Shown: positions 3,783 through 59,560 of the stretch, piece after piece
How the letters are laid out: each line of letters begins with the position of its first letter
Numbering within the stretch: the stretch's first letter is position 1
IMG/VR virus record: IMGVR_UViG_3300025133_000112
Span: 1 to 60,075 of that record
Source of the DNA: a virus
Taxonomy: Duplodnaviria > Caudoviricetes
Reading direction: 5' to 3' (one strand)
Length of the DNA stretch: 60,075 bases
The notes under the pieces: model-generated
Seen by the model: only the letters and a program-made list of their open reading frames with translations
Databases searched by the model: none
Told to the model about the DNA's origin: nothing
Made by a program: the position numbers and the translations under genes

Positions 3783-3825
3783 AAGTAAATAATTATACTA
3801 AACTCAAAGGAGAAGTATAATTATG
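3783..3825 (+). promoter_or_regulatory. Late promoter plus hairpin occluding the endonuclease start region
   Basis: AAGTAAATAATTA motif; ATAATTATACT (3789-3799) pairs with AGTATAATTAT (3814-3824), enclosing the RBS and covering the AT of ATG. Confidence 0.7.
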
Positions 3826-4494
3826 CGATACTTAGTATATAAAATAACGAATTTAATAAATAATAGAATTTATATAGGAATTCATAGAACAAAAGATATA
3901 AATGATGATTATATGGGTTCTGGTAAAATTTTAAATCTAGCTAAAGAAAAATATGGACTAGATAAATTTAAAAAAGAAATTCTTTATGATTTTGATACAG
4001 AAGAAGAAATGCTTCTTATGGAAGAAAAGATAGTTAATGAAGAATTTCTTTTGAGACCAGATACTTATAATTTAATTAAAGGTGGAATTGGTGGATGGCC
4101 ATATAATAAAGTTATTATAAAAGATAAAGATGATAATAAATTTATGGTGTCAATTGATGATCCAAGATATTTATCTGGTGAATTTGTATCTTTAGTTAAA
4201 AATACATTAAATGTTAAAGATAAAAATGGAAATATTTTTAGAATTTATATTGATGATCCAAGATATTTATCTGGTGAATTAATACCTATTTGGTGTAATA
4301 GAAGTCATAGTGATGAAACTAAAAAGAAAATAAGTAAATCTGTTTCTAAAAGTATATCTGGTAAAAATCATCCACAATATGGTAAATGTTGGATTTATAA
4401 TTTAGAATTAAAGAAAAGCAAATCTATACCTAAAGATGAATTAGAAAATTGGATTAAAGATGGATGGGTTAAAGGACGTAAATTAAATTTTTAA
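3823..4494 (+). CDS. GIY-YIG (Seg-like) free-standing homing endonuclease
   Basis: LVYKITNLINNRIYIGIH...YMGSG...YNL; duplicated IDDPRYLSGE; NUMOD3-like HSDETKKKIS. Confidence 0.92.
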   Translation: MRYLVYKITNLINNRIYIGIHRTKDINDDYMGSGKILNLAKEKYGLDKFKKEILYDFDTEEEMLLMEEKIVNEEFLLRPDTYNLIKGGIGGWPYNKVIIKDKDDNKFMVSIDDPRYLSGEFVSLVKNTLNVKDKNGNIFRIYIDDPRYLSGELIPIWCNRSHSDETKKKISKSVSKSISGKNHPQYGKCWIYNLELKKSKSIPKDELENWIKDGWVKGRKLNF

Positions 4495-4766: not shown

Positions 4767-5702
4767 ATGGATTTTAAGAATTTTAAGAAGAACCGTAAAA
4801 ACCTAAGTAAAAGCGTAGATAAACTAAAAGCCCAAAAGCCATCATATATTGATGATAGATTTTGGACTCTCACCAAAGATGCAGCCTTTGTTGGCGAAGC
4901 AATTATCAGATTTCTTCCTCAGAAAGATATTGATCTTTCACCTGTAGCACTTTATTACAAGCATGGATTTCAAGAAAATGGAAAATGGTTTTGGGAAAAT
5001 TGTCCATTCACCCTTGGAAAGGATTGTCCAGTTTGTGATTATGTTCAGCCATTTTGGGATGAAGGTTCAGAACCTTCAAAGAAGAAAGCTGGAAAGTATA
5101 GTAGAAAGAAGAATCATGTAGCAAATATTCTTGTAGTAAAAGATCCTGCTAAACCAGAAAATAATGGAAAGCAATTTCTATTTAATTTTGGCGTAAGTAT
5201 CTTTGATAAGCTAATGGAAAAACTTGCTCCTGAATCTGAATTATCTGAAGTTTCTATGGTACATGATCTTTGGGATGGACAGAATTTTCACCTTAAATCA
5301 AAGAAGAAAGATAAGTATCCAAATTATGATACATCTGAATTTCTTCCTGCAAAAACCCCTATAGCTAAGACTGATAAAGAAATTGAGACATTCTATAATG
5401 CAATTATAGATCTTAATGAATTTATTGATCCAAATAAGTTTAGAGATTATAAGCTTATTGAAGAGAAATTCAATACTATCATGAAGATAAAATCTACAAA
5501 TAAAGTTGAAGTATCTGATAATACACCAGAAGCAACTGAGGAAATTTCTGAAGAATCTAATGTAGATTCTATTATCACTGAGTCTAATGATACTGAGGAA
5601 GCTTCTGTGACACTTGAGGATGATTCAAATGTTAAAGCAACAGATGAAGAGGATGATGATTTTAACTTTGATGATGATGATTTTAACTTTGATGACGAGT
5701 AG
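4767..5702 (+). CDS. gp32: Single-stranded DNA-binding protein
   Basis: DDRFW, IIRFLP, HGFQ..GKWFWENCP...CPVC, NILVVKDP, NYDTSEF, acidic tail. Confidence 0.95.
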   Translation: MDFKNFKKNRKNLSKSVDKLKAQKPSYIDDRFWTLTKDAAFVGEAIIRFLPQKDIDLSPVALYYKHGFQENGKWFWENCPFTLGKDCPVCDYVQPFWDEGSEPSKKKAGKYSRKKNHVANILVVKDPAKPENNGKQFLFNFGVSIFDKLMEKLAPESELSEVSMVHDLWDGQNFHLKSKKKDKYPNYDTSEFLPAKTPIAKTDKEIETFYNAIIDLNEFIDPNKFRDYKLIEEKFNTIMKIKSTNKVEVSDNTPEATEEISEESNVDSIITESNDTEEASVTLEDDSNVKATDEEDDDFNFDDDDFNFDDE

Positions 5703-5772: not shown

Positions 5773-6249
5773 TTAAGGTGTTACTGGTACTGATGTAACT
5801 GTATATCCATTCATTTGTATAAAAAATCCAATAGCATATATAATTAATGTTATAAATCCTATAATAAATGGTAACTTTATTTTTGCCCATGTACTTAAGG
5901 TATTTAAAGTTGTTTTTATTTTTATAACATTTGCATAAATTAATTTTATATATTTATCAATATTTTCTGTATGTTCTTGAATATCGTCAATAGCTTTGCC
6001 AAGAAGCGGTATTTTATCTATTTTTTTATCATTTGAATTAATTATTTGTGCATTAGTTTTAAACATTATTAATAAATCACTAAAGCACTCTTTGATGTAA
6101 TTTAAGTCTTCATGATGTTTTGTATAATCCTTATTATTAGGTAAATCGTCAACGAGGATCTCGATTCTTTTAACGAGGCTAGTGAACTCAGATAGAATTT
6201 CAGTATTTCGGATTACAATATCAATATACTTAGCATCATCATCGCCCAT
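5773..6249 (-). CDS. Coiled-coil protein with C-terminal transmembrane helix (possibly holin-like)
   Basis: Hydrophobic LPFIIGFITLIIYAIGFFI near the C-terminus. Confidence 0.6.
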   Translation of the reverse strand: MGDDDAKYIDIVIRNTEILSEFTSLVKRIEILVDDLPNNKDYTKHHEDLNYIKECFSDLLIMFKTNAQIINSNDKKIDKIPLLGKAIDDIQEHTENIDKYIKLIYANVIKIKTTLNTLSTWAKIKLPFIIGFITLIIYAIGFFIQMNGYTVTSVPVTP

Positions 6250-6437
6250 TTTTATTTTTCCTTTATTTTATTATTTATTTTATTCTTAACCTTTTTTATA
6301 GATTCTAATATTTTCTCTTGTTCTTCTTTAAGTTTATTGTTGAAAAATAATTCCCTATTAGTCATTATATTTTTTTCCTTTATAGTCAATTTATGGTATC
6401 CAATTGAATCTAGTATAAGCATAACATTTTTCTTTTA

Positions 6438-6872
6438 TTATTTTTCTATTTCGTTTATTTCTTCGATTATCTCATTTAATGTTTTTTCACCAACTCCACC
6501 TTTATCATCATCAGCATCTCCATTCGCTGGGATTTTACTAGATTCTTGTTTCTTGTTAATTTTTAATTGTTTATCATGCATCTCTTGTAATTCTTTAGAT
6601 GCATTTATCATCATTTTTATAACACTTGCACAAGCATCAATAGCTTTTGGGCTTTTATCTATTGCTATTGATTTTAAAGATTCTCCGACGACGGTCTCAC
6701 AAATAGCTATTGACTTTCTTAATTTTGTGCGTACAAATTCATAGTCACAACTTATATCTAATTTATAGTCATCATTGAATTCAAATTTTTCTTCTTTAAT
6801 TTCTAATTCTTTAATTTCAAGATCATCATCAATATCTAATATGTCTGCTATTCCTGCTATATTTGGTTTCAT
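6438..6872 (-). CDS. gp16: Terminase small subunit
   Basis: DYEFVRTKL...SPKAIDACASVIKMMINASKELQEMH pattern; position after gp15. Confidence 0.75.
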   Translation of the reverse strand: MKPNIAGIADILDIDDDLEIKELEIKEEKFEFNDDYKLDISCDYEFVRTKLRKSIAICETVVGESLKSIAIDKSPKAIDACASVIKMMINASKELQEMHDKQLKINKKQESSKIPANGDADDDKGGVGEKTLNEIIEEINEIEK

Positions 6873-7417
6873 TTTATCATATATCCTTTAATAAATTTTG
6901 GATCTATTTTCTTAGGCATCCTTATTTCTGTTAACATATAATAGTCTAAATCTGAACCGCCATTTTCTATATGTTTTTCATATAAATCTTTATCAATTAA
7001 CTTTTTTCTTTGAGTATCCATATTACCACGAGCAGCACCCATTTTCTTTAAAAAATCCTTTTGCTTCATTTGAATGACAAATACAAGTCTTTCATTCATT
7101 GGAGTATTTTTAGATTTTTTACCAGCACTTCTAAATGAAGATTTTGTTTTTTCTAAAGTCTTTGATTCTCCGCCCATAACACTCATTGAAGCATATGCTC
7201 TAGAAGTCATTGGATCTAATGCTAAAGATACCCATCCAGCAGTAGGTCCTTCGGTTGGTGCAACTATTCCATTCTTTTGAATAAATTCCAAATTATTTAT
7301 ATGAGTACCATGATAAAATGTAACAGGATCACTATCTAACCACCATCCAATTTTTGGATTAAAGTTAGATGGTATTTTCTTTATAGCTTCACTTAAATAT
7401 TCAATAAATGATATCAT
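6869..7417 (-). CDS. ADP-ribosyltransferase-fold protein with capsid-targeting leader
   Basis: MISFIEYLSE leader; FYHGTHINNLEFIQKNG, VSLA and a late E in TEIRMPKKIDP. Confidence 0.65.
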   Translation of the reverse strand: MISFIEYLSEAIKKIPSNFNPKIGWWLDSDPVTFYHGTHINNLEFIQKNGIVAPTEGPTAGWVSLALDPMTSRAYASMSVMGGESKTLEKTKSSFRSAGKKSKNTPMNERLVFVIQMKQKDFLKKMGAARGNMDTQRKKLIDKDLYEKHIENGGSDLDYYMLTEIRMPKKIDPKFIKGYMIK

Positions 7418-7882
7418 CTATCTCTCCAAATCAGTTTCAATATCTAAATCTTCTACTGCTATTCCCATTATATTTGTATTCATTTTATCATGTATCCTTA
7501 TTTACGATTATATAAAATATCTTTTAATTTGGATGCTATTCCACTTTTTCTATATTTATATTTAACAAAAATATTCTGGACTCCATTAGTACTAGATATC
7601 CACCCTATAGGCTCATTACTTATATATGCTATAACTATTTTAGATGGATTTTCATTTGGATAATTCAATACTGCACCAAATCCTCCAGATATTCCTTTAT
7701 GATCCAATAAAGATAATTTTTTAGTTAATTTTTTATCTTTAATTATATCTTTATTATTTAATATTTTAGAATATGATACTTTATATTCAACATCTTCACT
7801 TAAATATTCAATAAATGATATCATCTATCTCTCCAAATCATTTGTATCTAAATTAGTTTCAATATCTAAATCTTCTACTGCT
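7387..7882. repeat. Direct repeat (~75 bp, one 15-nt indel) of gp15 3' end + RBS + leader
   Basis: 7387-7461 versus 7794-7882 share CTTCACTTAAATATTCAATAAATGATATCATCTATCTCTCCAAATCA and GTTTCAATATCTAAATCTTCTACTGCTA. Confidence 0.9.
7498..7824 (-). CDS. GNAT-like acetyltransferase with capsid-targeting leader
   Basis: Same MISFIEYLSE leader; acetyl-CoA motif A IFVKYKYRKSGIASKL. Confidence 0.65.
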   Translation of the reverse strand: MISFIEYLSEDVEYKVSYSKILNNKDIIKDKKLTKKLSLLDHKGISGGFGAVLNYPNENPSKIVIAYISNEPIGWISSTNGVQNIFVKYKYRKSGIASKLKDILYNRK

Positions 7883-8631
7883 AACCAATCAGGCCATTCA
7901 GCATCTTGACCTTCAGTTTTTGTTTCATCAATTTCTTGTGTTATTTCATTCCATTCTAAATTAATATTTGATATCGCATCTGCTTCCTCATTTACAAACT
8001 TAATATTCATAAAATCAATCACCGTTGAATTTGTAATTGGTGGGTATAGGAAACCTTTTAAAGTAAAATTCATGTTAGCCATGAGTGTTCTGGAGTTTTC
8101 CTCATCCAAATCTGTTTCCATATCTAAAGTAACGCCATTAAAATTTACTGGAACATTACGTTGTATGCCTAAAGAATCTATTTCTTTAACTGTAATAGTA
8201 TAATGAGGATTAAAAAATGTTACAGCTTGTTCAATAATTTGTAATAAATCATCCATGTATTTAGACCAAATAACCATATCAATTGTAAAATTATATGGAA
8301 TTGGATTATACATAAAATCTTCTGATTTGCTATCAATATTTATTGAGATAGTATCAAGAGGACTTAATTTTCTTTCATCATCTGGTTCTAAATCAGTTAT
8401 AAGAAATGATATTCTAGGTAAAAGAGTAGAAATTTTATTACCTACAGCAGGATTTCTTTGTAATAGCGTAAATATTTTACGTTTACCAGCATATGTAATA
8501 GGAACAGTGATATCTTTTAAAACATTACCACTTTCGCTTGTTCTTAATATATGAATATCATTAAAAATATGTGCAAAAGCAATTATATATTTTTTAGTCA
8601 TATCCCAGAAAAAATGATTTTTTGAAAGCAT
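7825..8631 (-). CDS. gp15: Tail sheath stabilizer/completion protein
   Basis: KKYIIAFAHIFNDIHI, VPITY, LPRISF, PIPYN, LQIIEQ..FFNP, FTLKGFLYPP. Confidence 0.92.
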   Translation of the reverse strand: MLSKNHFFWDMTKKYIIAFAHIFNDIHILRTSESGNVLKDITVPITYAGKRKIFTLLQRNPAVGNKISTLLPRISFLITDLEPDDERKLSPLDTISINIDSKSEDFMYNPIPYNFTIDMVIWSKYMDDLLQIIEQAVTFFNPHYTITVKEIDSLGIQRNVPVNFNGVTLDMETDLDEENSRTLMANMNFTLKGFLYPPITNSTVIDFMNIKFVNEEADAISNINLEWNEITQEIDETKTEGQDAEWPDWLAVEDLDIETNLDTNDLER

Positions 8632-11554: not shown

Positions 11555-12307
11555 TTATAGTGATCTATTTACTAATTTAAAATTCTTTTGAGCTTTTCTC
11601 GATAAAACATTTCCTGAATTTATTTTTGCTGCTGGGTCAAAACCTAATTTATTTTCAATTTTGTAAAGATTTTCTTGTCCTATTATTCCACCAATTTTAG
11701 AACGTAATGTGTCTAATGGAAAACCAATATTTCCAAGAAAAAAACTACTATATTGAGCTTGACGTTCTTGTTGGTGAATTTGATATTCTGGATTTATATG
11801 ATTATTTACAACCAAATAGGCAACTTCATCAAATGCAACACTAATAGATAATGTTGTGAGTGTATCATTTTGGTCATAACCTAATTGTATATCTTCAATA
11901 TTAACTAAAGTAGCATTTAAAAGAAATGCTGACATTTTTATATCACCACGATTATTATATAATTCTATACTAATTTGTACATTATATTCTGATCTATAAC
12001 CTAATTGACCGTTTTCTGTTCTAATTACAGATATCCATTTATTAATAAATTCAAATAATTTATTGTTTTGATCAACATAAAAAGTAAAATTAGCTGGATC
12101 ATAATCAAAGTCTTGAGCTATATTTTGTTTTTTATTATCAAGAATAAATTGCTTTGTATTTATAGTCAAAAATGGAAAAGACGCATCTTTACAAAGATAC
12201 GAAACACTTTCATCACCTGTTTCTATAAATGGTGATGAAAATTGAACTTTGTAAAGATTTGGCTTTAAAAATCCAGTAAAATTAGATTTTATATCATTAA
12301 TTAGCAT
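11555..12307 (-). CDS. gp54: Baseplate-tail tube initiator
   Basis: Tube-protein paralogue (KPNLYKVQF, LCKDASFP, FTFYVD) adjacent to gp19. Confidence 0.7.
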   Translation of the reverse strand: MLINDIKSNFTGFLKPNLYKVQFSSPFIETGDESVSYLCKDASFPFLTINTKQFILDNKKQNIAQDFDYDPANFTFYVDQNNKLFEFINKWISVIRTENGQLGYRSEYNVQISIELYNNRGDIKMSAFLLNATLVNIEDIQLGYDQNDTLTTLSISVAFDEVAYLVVNNHINPEYQIHQQERQAQYSSFFLGNIGFPLDTLRSKIGGIIGQENLYKIENKLGFDPAAKINSGNVLSRKAQKNFKLVNRSL

Positions 12308-12309
12308 TA

Positions 12310-12795
12310 TTATACTTTATTCCAATTTGTATATCTTAATTCTACAGTATATTCTGCTATTGTATCTGTGCTTTCAAATGATAGTTCAACAGGTGAAATA
12401 TTAATAGGCCATAATCCAACAAGTTCATAATTAGTCAAATCATCACCTTGTTGATCAAGAAGTATAATATTTCCTGTTCTTTCATACTCTGCTGGAGTAG
12501 CACCAAACATAGCATCATTGTTTTTAATTTCTTCCATCCATGATTCCATAGCTGTTCTAATAACCAGATCTGTATCCATAAGAACTGTTATAGAAATTGG
12601 CTCAAAAACAACATCACCAGCAACGTGATGCTTCATGTTAAGAAATGGAACTTCAATTTCACCGATAGTTTTACCAGGAAGTTGAGTGGCTTTACACATA
12701 AAACGAAGTTTATCTGCTATGCCTGATATTTCCATCTTATATAGATTAGGACGTGCACCATTAATAAAGTTTGCTTTAAACTCTGATATTCTCAA
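12310..12795 (-). CDS. gp19: Tail tube protein
   Basis: GARPNLY, FMCKATQLPG..IG.IEVPF, AGD..F, WPINISPVELS, EYTV. Confidence 0.95.
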   Translation of the reverse strand: MRISEFKANFINGARPNLYKMEISGIADKLRFMCKATQLPGKTIGEIEVPFLNMKHHVAGDVVFEPISITVLMDTDLVIRTAMESWMEEIKNNDAMFGATPAEYERTGNIILLDQQGDDLTNYELVGLWPINISPVELSFESTDTIAEYTVELRYTNWNKV

Positions 12796-39026: not shown

Positions 39027-39764
39027 TTACATTAAAGAACTTGGAAAATATTTATCAATTTCATATTCTTCAAGATCTTGATCTTCTTCTAAAGCATCAC
39101 CAGTAAGATCTGATTCATTTGAATTAAGATCTTCTTCTAAAATATCTTTAGATTTAACACCAATATTTTCTGCTAAAATAGTAACCTTTGTTCCAAAATC
39201 TTCAATAGTTTGAAATTTGTCATTTTTAATAAGTTTCATAACTTTTTCTGAATCACTATCAGTAAGAGCTTCAGTTAATTCTGTAAACTTAAATGCTTTT
39301 TCATATTCAAATGTTTGCTTATCTGATTCAAGATTTGCATTTAAAGATTCATTAAGCTCAGTCTTAAGAGTACTTATTTGGCCAGTAAGATCTTTCATTA
39401 CATCTATTTCAGACTCAGGTATATCAATATGACATTCTGTTAAAAGCTTAGTTACTCCAGTCATAATCTTATCAGCAGTTTTTGCTTTAAGATTTTCTGT
39501 TATAATACCTTCATTTTCTATTAGAAAATCAGTTACAGTAAGACCAACATAATCATTTAGTTTTTCAACTAATTCTTCTTTAAATTCTGTTAAATCTGAT
39601 TGACATTTTTCTTCTAGTTCTGCATTCTTAGCTTCAGTAAGAGCTTCAACCTTTTCGGTAGCTTTAGCCTCAACTAAAGTTTCAAACATTACTTCAATTT
39701 CATTTCCAACATCTTCTGTTAGAACTTCACTAAAGTGTTTTTCTAAAATATCTTTTATCTTCAT
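39027..39764 (-). CDS. gp22: Prohead core scaffold protein
   Basis: Acidic coiled coil directly upstream of gp23. Confidence 0.85.
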   Translation of the reverse strand: MKIKDILEKHFSEVLTEDVGNEIEVMFETLVEAKATEKVEALTEAKNAELEEKCQSDLTEFKEELVEKLNDYVGLTVTDFLIENEGIITENLKAKTADKIMTGVTKLLTECHIDIPESEIDVMKDLTGQISTLKTELNESLNANLESDKQTFEYEKAFKFTELTEALTDSDSEKVMKLIKNDKFQTIEDFGTKVTILAENIGVKSKDILEEDLNSNESDLTGDALEEDQDLEEYEIDKYFPSSLM

Positions 39765-39821: not shown

Positions 39822-40490
39822 TTATTTTAATTTGTTAAAATAATCTTTAAAAATGTCTATATACGCATTATTTAATTGACTTTTTGGTGTTTTATTGATA
39901 ATATTATGATATTCGTCAAGAGTTTCATTTAAATCTTTTCCGATTAAAACACCGTTTTCATACACCCATTCATGATTTTCCATAATAGCAGTCATAAATG
40001 CATCAGGTGCAGAAGGTTCATGTTCAATATCACCAAGAGAAACAATTCGTAATCCTTGCACAACTCTAACACCATTAGAAACTTTAGTTGCACCAAATGC
40101 CCTAGATGATATTCCAAATCCTATTTTTGCATCAATTAAATTTTTAAGAATTTTACCCTTTGGAAATTCTGTTAATACTTCTGCCTTTGTTATAAAAGCA
40201 TCATTATCTTGAGTTACCTTTACAAATTTATGACATGCATTTTCATAATTAATTTTATGTTTATTTTTTTCAGGATGACCTAATTCACCTAAAGCTCTAT
40301 CAACATGTAAATATTTATCAGTATGAGCATTAATTGCTTCTGTTAAAATTTGTGTAGGGTAAATTCGACCATTACCATTTGGGGTGTTACCTTGTAAAGT
40401 AATACCTTCTATATAGTATTTTCTTTGATGTTCTTTACCTTCTGTAAGAATATTCATTTCTTGATATTCTTCAGTTAAAAACTCTTCCAT
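39822..40490 (-). CDS. gp21: Prohead protease
   Basis: IEGI.LQ...NGNGRIYP, RALGELGHP, PKGKI, GISSRA.G, PSAPDAF. Confidence 0.95.
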   Translation of the reverse strand: MEEFLTEEYQEMNILTEGKEHQRKYYIEGITLQGNTPNGNGRIYPTQILTEAINAHTDKYLHVDRALGELGHPEKNKHKINYENACHKFVKVTQDNDAFITKAEVLTEFPKGKILKNLIDAKIGFGISSRAFGATKVSNGVRVVQGLRIVSLGDIEHEPSAPDAFMTAIMENHEWVYENGVLIGKDLNETLDEYHNIINKTPKSQLNNAYIDIFKDYFNKLK

Positions 40491-56144: not shown

Positions 56145-56609
56145 ATGCCACAAGAATATGCTTATGAAAATTCGTTTAAAGTTGAGATATTATCAGAAAA
56201 ATATAAATATCTTAATAATTCCATAGTTGATACTTCAATTCCTGGATTAACTATTGGTACATCTGAATACCCAACTGCAAAAAGACCATTAACAGTGCCA
56301 GGTACAGGTACAATTATTGATCAATTAGCATTAACATTTATTTTAGATGAAAGTTATACTAATTGGAGACTTGTTTATTCTTGGTTAAATTCATTATCTA
56401 GTTTTTCAGAAACAGATGATAATCCTGATGATATAAGTGATATTGGAATTCATATATTAAACAATAAATTAAATCATGAATTTGTTATTCAACTTCAAGA
56501 TTGTTTTCCAATATCATTATCTGAAATTCCTTTAAATAGCCAAATAAATTCAGCAACTTCTATTAAATTTGATGTGACATTTGTCATAAATGGTATTATA
56601 ATAGATTAA
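56145..56609 (+). CDS. gp3: Tail tube terminator
   Basis: IPGLTIG, PG, L..FILDE...NW..VY.W, I.ILNN, FP.SLS. Confidence 0.85.
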   Translation: MPQEYAYENSFKVEILSEKYKYLNNSIVDTSIPGLTIGTSEYPTAKRPLTVPGTGTIIDQLALTFILDESYTNWRLVYSWLNSLSSFSETDDNPDDISDIGIHILNNKLNHEFVIQLQDCFPISLSEIPLNSQINSATSIKFDVTFVINGIIID

Positions 56610-59344: not shown

Positions 59345-59560
59345 ATGAAATCTTTTAAAGAGTATTTAATAGAATTTTTTAATGAAGGTAATCAAATTCC
59401 TCTTTTGAGAAGAAAAGGAATTAATGGATCAAAAGTATTTTGCCCTAAATGTGGTAAAACATTTGTGTATTATAAACAAAAAACTCAATGTAGGCATTGT
59501 AAATCAAATATTGTTTCTACTATGCAAACTAACGATAAATTAGATAATGAATTAAATTAG
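59345..59560 (+). CDS. Zinc-ribbon protein with capsid-targeting-like leader
   Basis: MKSFKEYLIE; CPKCG...CRHC. Confidence 0.6.
   Translation: MKSFKEYLIEFFNEGNQIPLLRRKGINGSKVFCPKCGKTFVYYKQKTQCRHCKSNIVSTMQTNDKLDNELN

Follow-up and report, generated by a model that had tools for sequence, protein, structure and literature searches.

A GNAT-like gene and a gene of the PARP-like ADP-ribosyltransferase fold, each behind a copy of one leader, between gp15 and gp16 of a marine T4-like phage: a candidate array of head-loaded proteins

Why should two unrelated genes, lying side by side between two essential virion genes of a phage, open with exactly the same ten residues? The question is raised by a contig of 60,075 bp and 28% G+C (IMG/VR record IMGVR_UViG_3300025133_000112, analyzed whole and called the window below), which by its gene content is part of an uncultured marine T4-like myophage. 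On its minus strand, gp15 (8631-7825) is followed by a first open reading frame (ORF) that we call ORF108 (7498..7824), a chimeric ORF of 21 codons (7418..7483), a second gene, ORF182 (6869..7417), and gp16 (6872-6438), the gene for the small terminase subunit (terS). Both ORF108 and ORF182 open with MISFIEYLSE, at 7824-7795 and 7417-7388, respectively. We consider it probable that they form an array of two leader-tagged cargo genes between gp15 and terS, which would have arisen by grafting of the leader onto a new cargo and whose products would be loaded into the head in a T4-like manner, cleaved, and injected. Packaging, cleavage, injection, and the enzyme activities are what we infer from the comparisons set out here.

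The flanking genes are those named in the preliminary description of this DNA: gp15 (7825..8631) matches the tail sheath stabilizer and tail completion profiles PF16724 (T4-gp15_tss, E = 1.7e-58) and phrog_227 (E = 1.8e-63), and gp16 (6438..6872) matches the PHROG small terminase subunit profile phrog_735 (E = 7.8e-10) and phrog_445 (E = 7.6e-5). The genes between them are tightly packed. The start codons of ORF108 and ORF182 each abut the stop of the ORF upstream, and the stop of ORF182 overlaps the start of gp16 (ATGA). The last codons of gp15, TTG GAG AGA TAG, contain the GGAGAG ribosome-binding site of the next gene, and such a GGAGAG-containing gp15 tail precedes ORF182 as well as ORF108. 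This arrangement is part of a direct repeat of 50 nucleotides (nt) at a spacing of 407 (7387-7436 versus 7794-7843), which takes in 19 nt from the end of gp15, all 30 nt of the leader, and 1 nucleotide beyond it. The two copies differ at 1 of the 50 positions (98% identity), a likeness far beyond chance within 2.3 kb. The ORFs and this repeat thus bear out the earlier observation that two unrelated genes share MISFIEYLSE, each behind a copy of the gp15 3' end. More of the gp15 tail recurs in a 37-nt repeat of 95% identity (7425-7461 versus 7847-7883); since its spacing is 422 rather than 407, the second gp15-tail copy lacks 15 nt (codons NLDTN). A third repeat, of 44 nt, 86% identity, and spacing 611 (6845-6888 versus 7456-7499), covers the gp16 start region.

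The 21-codon ORF between the two genes, MNTNIMGIAVEDLDIETDLER, has the structure of a recombination scar. Three-way alignment resolves it into a relic of the gp16 5' end (7483-7456) fused to a relic of the gp15 3' end (7455-7418, minus the 15 nt), with the joint at the shared microhomology TAGCAG (7461-7456) and the TAG of the scar ORF abutting the ATG of ORF182. The alignment therefore agrees with the preliminary description, in which this ORF was a chimera of the gp16 start and the gp15 end joined at TAGCAG. Over 44 nt the gp16 relic has 6 differences, and its translation is MNTNIMGIA, against MKPNIAGIA in gp16. The motif AAGGATAYATGATAAAATGA, first taken as gp16 start region, is more than that: most of it encodes the C-terminal tail KGYMxK conserved in the ORF182 family, whose genes run into the gp16 start at this end. 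The spacer therefore also holds a relic of the tail of an ORF182-type gene: past the TAA stop of ORF108, and in frame with it, lies GGATACATGATAAAATGA (7480..7497, minus strand), which reads GYMIK* and matches the conserved family end in the alignment.

Comparison with a relative indicates what was gained. L203, a contig of 2,435 bp and the sole close relative that the metagenome collection yielded, carries a tape-measure-like gene, gp15, an ORF182 homologue (89% identical, leader MISFKEYLSE), and the gp16 start, without ORF108 or the spacer. It is collinear with the window, at a nucleotide identity, as read from the alignment, of about 85% in gp15 and about 93% in the ORF182-type gene. The global alignment of the two leaves exactly one extra block in the window, 7824-7418, of 407 nt, the same length as the repeat spacing. 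The upstream edge of this unit (7418..7824, minus strand) lies exactly 1 nt past leader codon 10; its downstream edge consists of the relic of the ORF182-type tail and 28 nt from the start of a gp16, which meet the gp15 tail at the 6-nt microhomology.

The one-gene form also occurs next to the two-gene form. In a sequencing run labeled marine metagenome, as are all the runs containing this stretch, a separately assembled contig of 420 nt (run X1, depth 11) spans 7404-7823, including the scar, with 0 differences from the window. In a second contig of the same run (depth 8.68), 7417 is linked to 7833 through ten other letters, as in L203, and 7418-7832 of the window is skipped. One-cargo and two-cargo strains thus co-occur in a natural sample, and, given L203 and the X1 variant with ORF182 only, the window holds exactly one extra 407-nt unit. 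Run X1 is not counted as independent evidence because it may be the source sample of the window. In run X2, which has a different study code, contigs match 7584-7734 and 7772-7922 with 0 differences, including the junction of gp15, leader, and ORF108. A contig of 8166 nt has a 35-nt match to 7768-7802. Searches for further relatives with gp15 only (viral contigs) and with the array region by blastn (cultured phages) returned no related locus and no match, respectively.

ORF182 has 67 homologues, of which 65 were aligned and two short ones (P0026 and P0034) left out. Invariant residues of the alignment include H36 (in YHGTH), Y75, G82-G83-E84, R110, and E164, and the YHGT of the family aligns with LYHGT of Tpt1. 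In the AlphaFold model (pLDDT 86.2, pTM 0.82), the best Foldseek rows are all ADP-ribosyltransferases (ARTs), namely, KptA/Tpt1, DarT, Rhs toxins, and cholera toxin, with nothing at E ≤ 1e-3 (best E, 1.4e-3). Among the 50 matches listed by the VIA structure search, 48 are ART fold or ART related by title, the exceptions being an uncharacterized Caulobacter protein and a toxin-antitoxin entry. The best is the NAD lobe of KptA (Z = 9.9; root mean square deviation of 2.5 over 89 residues; 22% identity), followed by TreX (Z = 7.8), DarT (6.7-7.2), and PARP13 (6.8). ORF182 of the window itself matches 0 Pfam families; within the family, 21 of the 65 aligned sequences have hits to PF00644 (PARP; best E, 3.2e-5). 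Apart from one lead (0.91) to a cluster labeled DarT/PARP, the Atlas search turned up viral clusters without names. From the uniformity of these hits, the VIA Z-scores, and the family-wide Pfam matches, ORF182 is a predicted PARP-like protein of the ADP-ribosyltransferase fold. The earlier assignment as an ART therefore holds at the level of fold.

The ORF108 protein is of another kind. Its model (pLDDT 82.4) has a GNAT-like fold over residues 16-104, ending with a helix at 96-104, and its top Foldseek hits are all GNATs (best E, 4.9e-4; targets of 134-181 amino acids [aa]), with TM-scores of about 0.5-0.6 when normalized to the query and 0.33-0.46 when normalized to the target. The sequence RKSGIA at residues 92-97 corresponds to motif A (R/Q-x-x-G-x-G/A), with R92 invariant and G95 nearly so. 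The elements β5-α4-β6 are missing and appear to be retained in the longer relatives P0084 and P0078. None of the nine retrieved relatives carries MISFIEYLSE, which argues that the leader was grafted on here. The closest of them (97 aa, 69% identical) aligns from its residue 2 to residue 13 of ORF108, so that the fusion is exact: two residues separate the leader from the cargo, which begins with its own residue 2. Other contigs encode short relatives (97-114 aa, up to 69% identical) with an identical C-terminal end, ...KLKDILYNRK; the short form thus represents a conserved family and did not originate in the stacking event. In two viral loci, relatives lie among small nonstructural genes, and tblastn against cultured phages gave no match. 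As judged from these comparisons, ORF108 encodes a naturally short GNAT-like protein that gained its leader here.

What, then, is the shared leader? The internal proteins IPII and IPIII of T4 open with MKTYQEFIAE and IPI opens with MKTFKEF. According to PMC9026906, ten N-terminal residues of IPIII are enough for packaging; in this capsid targeting sequence (CTS), residues 4 and 7 matter for targeting and residues 8 and 10 for processing, and the prohead protease gp21 cuts after L/I-x-E. MISFIEYLSE has F4 and Y7 against Y4 and F7 of IPII and IPIII, and ends in L8-S9-E10, a sequence match to the (L/I)-x-E processing motif at the same positions. By alignment, the leader is thus of the T4 type at the residues reported to matter: an aromatic at 4 and 7, L or I at 8, and E at 10. 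The idea of a leader of about ten residues of the T4 CTS type accordingly stands at these four positions, and a gp21-type protease is encoded in the contig. The window has a third such gene, ORF71 (59345..59560, plus strand), which opens with MKSFKEYLIE, encodes a zinc-ribbon-like protein of 71 aa (CPKCG...CRHC), and lies directly after gp4 (phrog_218, E = 1.3e-48); we regard its product as a third candidate head-loaded protein. The same type of leader thus stands on mutually unrelated proteins in the window: an ART fold, a GNAT-like fold, and ORF71.

The leader extends well beyond this contig. A loose back-translated pattern was found in at least 119 viral loci. Among the matches listed, 120/120 open an ORF, and the frame stays open upstream for no more than 30 codons in 116/120 and for longer in 4/120. 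A permuted pattern of the same codon composition gave 0 matches. The strict form, MI[ST]FIEYLxE, occurs at 17 loci on several payload types, some of them beside gp21, gp22, or gp23. Most loose-pattern matches listed belong to a single family of about 200 aa that starts about 0.5 kb downstream of gp4 (loci L001-L080, for example, L002:3437-4030; 190-210 aa; start MK[ST]FKEYLxESKKxYxFKxKVAG), with gp4 present in 58 of the 80 flanked viral loci. A remote relative of this family (29.7% identity, E = 3e-9) is gp282 of phage PA5oct, annotated as a virion protein by electrospray ionization tandem mass spectrometry. The other payloads appear mutually unrelated by eye (DIDETLF-type, cysteine-rich, very basic, and flavodoxin-like). 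A regular expression for the leader matched 166 ORFs in 160 loci, versus 1 in reversed sequences, and two or more leader ORFs occur in 24 of the 160 loci, fractions that are not estimates of prevalence because the loci were selected by the presence of a leader or ART gene and are partly overlapping. Five loci (L011, L030, L032, L059, and L066) have runs of three or four mostly abutting leader genes. In four such runs (L011:3259-4812, L032:1279-4959, L059:989-5788, and L066:3066-4629), no scars are visible between the leader genes. Across phages the leader is kept as a peptide with different codons: positions 2, 3, 5, and 9 vary and F/Y4, Y/F7, L/I8, and E10 persist. The pattern is that of a peptide-level signal on unrelated proteins, both widespread and specific. 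Our literature searches, in which subscription journals were not covered, found no paper containing MKTFKEYL, MKSFKEYL, or MISFIEYL, and a search for the capsid targeting sequence in a cyanophage context yielded a T4 review only.

Does the tag belong to the place or to the gene? The preliminary description saw the gp15-gp16 interval as a slot that supplies the packaging tag to interchangeable payloads. Members of the ART family occur in no fewer than 61 viral contigs and in 45 records of cultured Vibrio phages, and in 51 of the 65 aligned members an (L/I)xE ends at residues 8-11, with similar N termini by eye in the viral loci. We analyzed its sites in 55 of 61 loci, scanning 84 of 104 neighboring ORFs after near-identical loci were dropped. 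The gene immediately precedes terS in three phages, represented by the window, L203, and L156; it lies between gp13 and gp14 in L168, L186, and L200, between gp25 and gp6 in L149, beside the sheath gene in L158, between the large terminase and portal genes in L191-L195, and near PhoH, RNR, or uvsW in other loci. Because the family carries leaders at many virion-module sites, including those between gp13 and gp14, between gp25 and gp6, and by the sheath gene, the tag goes with the ART gene, which favors virion modules, and not with the slot; that part of the proposal falls. The content of the gp15-gp16 interval does differ between phages, as had been expected (survey of the window, L203, L156, and HTVC008M only). 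As a slot for payloads with the same leader it is borne out by the one-cargo and two-cargo states but not by HTVC008M and L156, which hold untagged genes there: a hypothetical protein of 183 aa in HTVC008M (L120:4337-4888) and, ahead of the ART gene of L156, a Cys/His-rich ORF of 105 aa (L156:4687-5004). A relationship of the HTVC008M gene to ORF182 was considered and ruled out (E = 0.37, no leader).

How did the array arise? Since identity between the two units ends 1 nt past leader codon 10 and resumes at the relic of the ART tail, we infer that the body of an ART gene copy was replaced, exactly behind the leader, by a leaderless GNAT-like gene. In the alignment the upstream boundary of this exchange coincides with the predicted cleavage site. 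An unequal, microhomology-mediated crossover would then have stacked the copy carrying leader and ORF108 before the intact ART gene, joining codon 9 of gp16 to the gp15 tail at TAGCAG. The partners may have been co-infecting relatives with different cargo, a route that fits the 6/44 nt differences of the gp16 relic, or a tandem duplication may have come first and the replacement afterwards. Of the earlier suggestion that the slot expands by unequal crossover, the gain of one unit stands, given the single-cargo forms in L203 and X1; the route does not follow from it, as both origins fit. ORF182 may still be translated by coupling because the scar keeps a gp16-type start and a gp15-type GGAGAG-TAG-ATG junction.

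If the leader works as in T4, the products of the array would follow a familiar path. ORF108 and ORF182 would be expressed with the neighboring virion genes, and the leader would dock the nascent proteins on the gp22 scaffold core of the prohead. A gp21-type protease would cut after Leu8-Ser9-Glu10, and the mature PARP-like ART of 172 aa, and possibly a GNAT-like protein of 98 aa, would remain in the head and pass into the next host along with the DNA, where the ART would use NAD+ to modify a protein or nucleic acid of the host. Genes of the gp20, gp21, gp22, and gp23 types are all present on the contig by PHROG scan. The gp21-type gene (39822..40490, minus strand; phrog_207, E = 6.7e-48) presumably encodes the leader-removing enzyme and the gp22-type gene (39027..39764, minus strand; phrog_237, E = 1.8e-30), with 18 (L/I)xE sites by count, the presumed docking core. 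The gp23 of the window has LDE at 58-60, before the conserved core.

Several points weigh against this reading. Late expression is suggested by gene packing and not by motifs. The word TATAAATA is the T4 late-promoter word, and it is not enriched in the window (31 found versus 27.2 expected); sigma-70-like promoter sites are at the level of chance (22 versus 21.3), and no terminator-like site was found. For ORF182, H36, Y75, and E164 are a candidate H-Y-E set, read from the sequence alignment. In 14 of the 65 family members no (L/I)xE ends at residues 8-11, and the homologue of Kuja (Ackermannviridae) has no leader; an ART can therefore exist without the tag. ORF108 is rare, with 11 hits among 1.84 billion representatives in an exhaustive search, and stops after the motif-A helix (α3), having the first two-thirds of a GNAT fold. 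The preliminary identification of ORF108 as a GNAT is thus upheld for fold and motif A and not for the part of the domain beyond that helix, and its best Pfam GNAT match (PF13673, 20 bits) is below the gathering score of 23.6. The protein may be inactive or a passenger. As to the origin of the array, the data fit either two parents or duplication followed by replacement.

These points bear on three other explanations. The shared N terminus might have nothing to do with head loading and act instead as a translation-initiation context, a degron, or a neck or terminase tag, the proteins working in the producing cell only. This would suit the position of the tagged genes, which adjoin neck and terminase genes rather than head genes, and the Kuja homologue, which does without the leader; moreover, since the ribosome-binding site falls within the 50-nt repeat, some of the conservation seen in the window could be at the RNA level. 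We nevertheless judge it decidedly unlikely, because the conservation of the leader between phages is at the peptide level despite different codons, with F/Y4, Y/F7, L/I8, and E10 kept, because it agrees with the T4 CTS at positions of experimental relevance (PMC9026906) and the permuted pattern has no matches, and because the post-gp4 leader family is related to a PA5oct protein annotated in virions.

Another possibility is that the ART alone is functional cargo, with ORF108 being an inert, truncated GNAT remnant that happens to lie in frame behind a duplicated leader and is heading for loss. The lack of β5-α4-β6 (apparently kept in P0084 and P0078), the Pfam score below the cut-off, and the coexistence of the single-cargo strain at similar depth in run X1 would all be expected of a remnant. 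However, short relatives in other contigs share the ...KLKDILYNRK end, the reading frame of ORF108 is unbroken, contigs of two runs from different study codes showing 0 differences, and its fusion to the leader is exact, so that we find this explanation unlikely. Finally, the tandem could be an assembly chimera of an ORF108 strain and an ORF182 strain occupying the same slot. In its favor, the window was assembled from a metagenome, run X1 does contain two strains, and the 50-nt repeat interrupts assembly graphs, the X1 pieces ending at 7404 and 7823. The joint between the gp16 and gp15 relics, however, has only 6 nt in common, too short to mislead a k-mer assembler, and it lies inside the 420-nt contig of X1; among the run contigs matched to the window, none shows ORF108 running into a full gp16. 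The scar junction is therefore not an assembly artifact, and we give such a chimera hardly any credence. The reading that we prefer is thus still that of two leader-tagged genes encoding putative head-loaded proteins.

The remainder of the contig agrees with a T4-like identity. Profile scans with PHROG and Pfam assign gp32, gp16, gp15, tail tube and sheath, gp13, gp14, and baseplate genes, together with gp23, gp22, gp21, gp20, gp55, UvsY, UvsW, and gp4. The gp15 of the window is about 30% identical to that of Pelagibacter phage HTVC008M and of cyanomyophages. The large terminase gene is not next after gp16, which is followed by two small ORFs (56 aa, and 158 aa with a hydrophobic C terminus; 5773-6422, minus strand) and, beyond these, by gp32 on the opposite strand (4767-5702, plus). 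Just upstream of gp32 lies a homing-endonuclease-like gene (3823-4494, plus; phrog_314, E = 1.6e-43). Three paralogues of the tail tube family (phrog_45) are present, two of them adjacent (11555-12795, minus) and one by gp55 (56145-56609, plus).

The new elements are the scar, the polymorphism between one and two cargo genes in a natural sample, the exchange of cargo at a predicted cleavage site, and a leader-bearing family of PARP-like ARTs. The scar and the co-occurring one-gene strain together offer a rare view of the addition of a member to such a cargo set, in which the cargo appears to have been swapped right at the predicted protease site and the units stacked by way of a 6-nt microhomology. 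It is tempting to go further, and we do so tentatively, to a general plug-in of marine T4-like phages, in which a ribosome-binding site and a ten-residue leader, closed by the protease site, turn any gene recombined exactly behind them into packaged and injected cargo, arrays grow by unequal microhomology crossover between co-infecting strains, and the widespread ART serves as an injected enzyme of host takeover or anti-defense. If so, the window would capture one step of array growth in a living population. Should the leader work as in T4, the injected protein sets of uncultured marine T4-like phages could be read from sequence and would include a PARP-like ART family. The leader also suggests itself as a natural, portable tag with which foreign proteins might be loaded into T4-like phages of hosts other than E. 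coli.

The closest parallel is with the internal proteins of T4, for which sets of diverse proteins sharing only a CTS are established in T-even phages (PMC3012670; the CTS work of Mullaney and Black 1996 and Repoila et al. 1994 is cited via PMC9026906 and PMC3012670). Like IPI, IPII, and IPIII, the proteins of the window are unrelated to one another and bear a ten-residue leader with aromatics at 4 and 7 and (L/I)xE at 8-10. Tagged genes are adjacent in both phages (ipIII next to ipII in T4, ORF108 and ORF182 here), gp21- and gp22-type genes are in the same genome, and one tagged gene lies near gp4, with ipI about 3 kb from gene 4 in T4 and ORF71 abutting gp4 here. The leader itself differs (MISFIEYLSE versus MKTYQEFIAE), as do the locus, gp15-gp16, and the cargo, which has enzyme folds here and is small and basic in T4; the gp15 of the window is, as noted, only about 30% identical to those of known T4-like phages, and the window is known from sequence alone, unlike the T4 proteins.

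T4 also delivers an ART, Alt, from the head, trimmed by gp21; it modifies the host RNA polymerase and is cleaved at both ends (PMC9026906). Similarly, ORF182 is a predicted ART with a leader of the gp21-cleavage type. Alt is a large enzyme of the R-S-E type, whereas ORF182 has 182 aa, is PARP-like, and has candidate H-Y-E residues; Pfam scans, made without a direct pairwise comparison, gave no relation between the two. In its predicted fold, its YHGT motif, and the PARP hits of its family, ORF182 resembles the PARP and diphtheria-toxin-like ARTs, Tpt1/KptA, and DarT, and, unlike Tpt1, it has no RNA-binding lobe. ORF108 resembles the GNATs RimI, AAC, and NatC over residues 16-104 and in its motif-A-like RKSGIA, and differs from them in the absence of β5-α4-β6. 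MuF-type polymorphic toxins, finally, are phage head proteins with fused toxin domains. The ART domain occupies a comparable place in three loci that are not T4-like (L192:1788-3194, L193:3189-3941, and L195:3431-4222), where it is the C-terminal part of a larger protein encoded between the large terminase and portal genes; in the window, it is free-standing, unfused to a head protein, and behind a putative cleavable leader.

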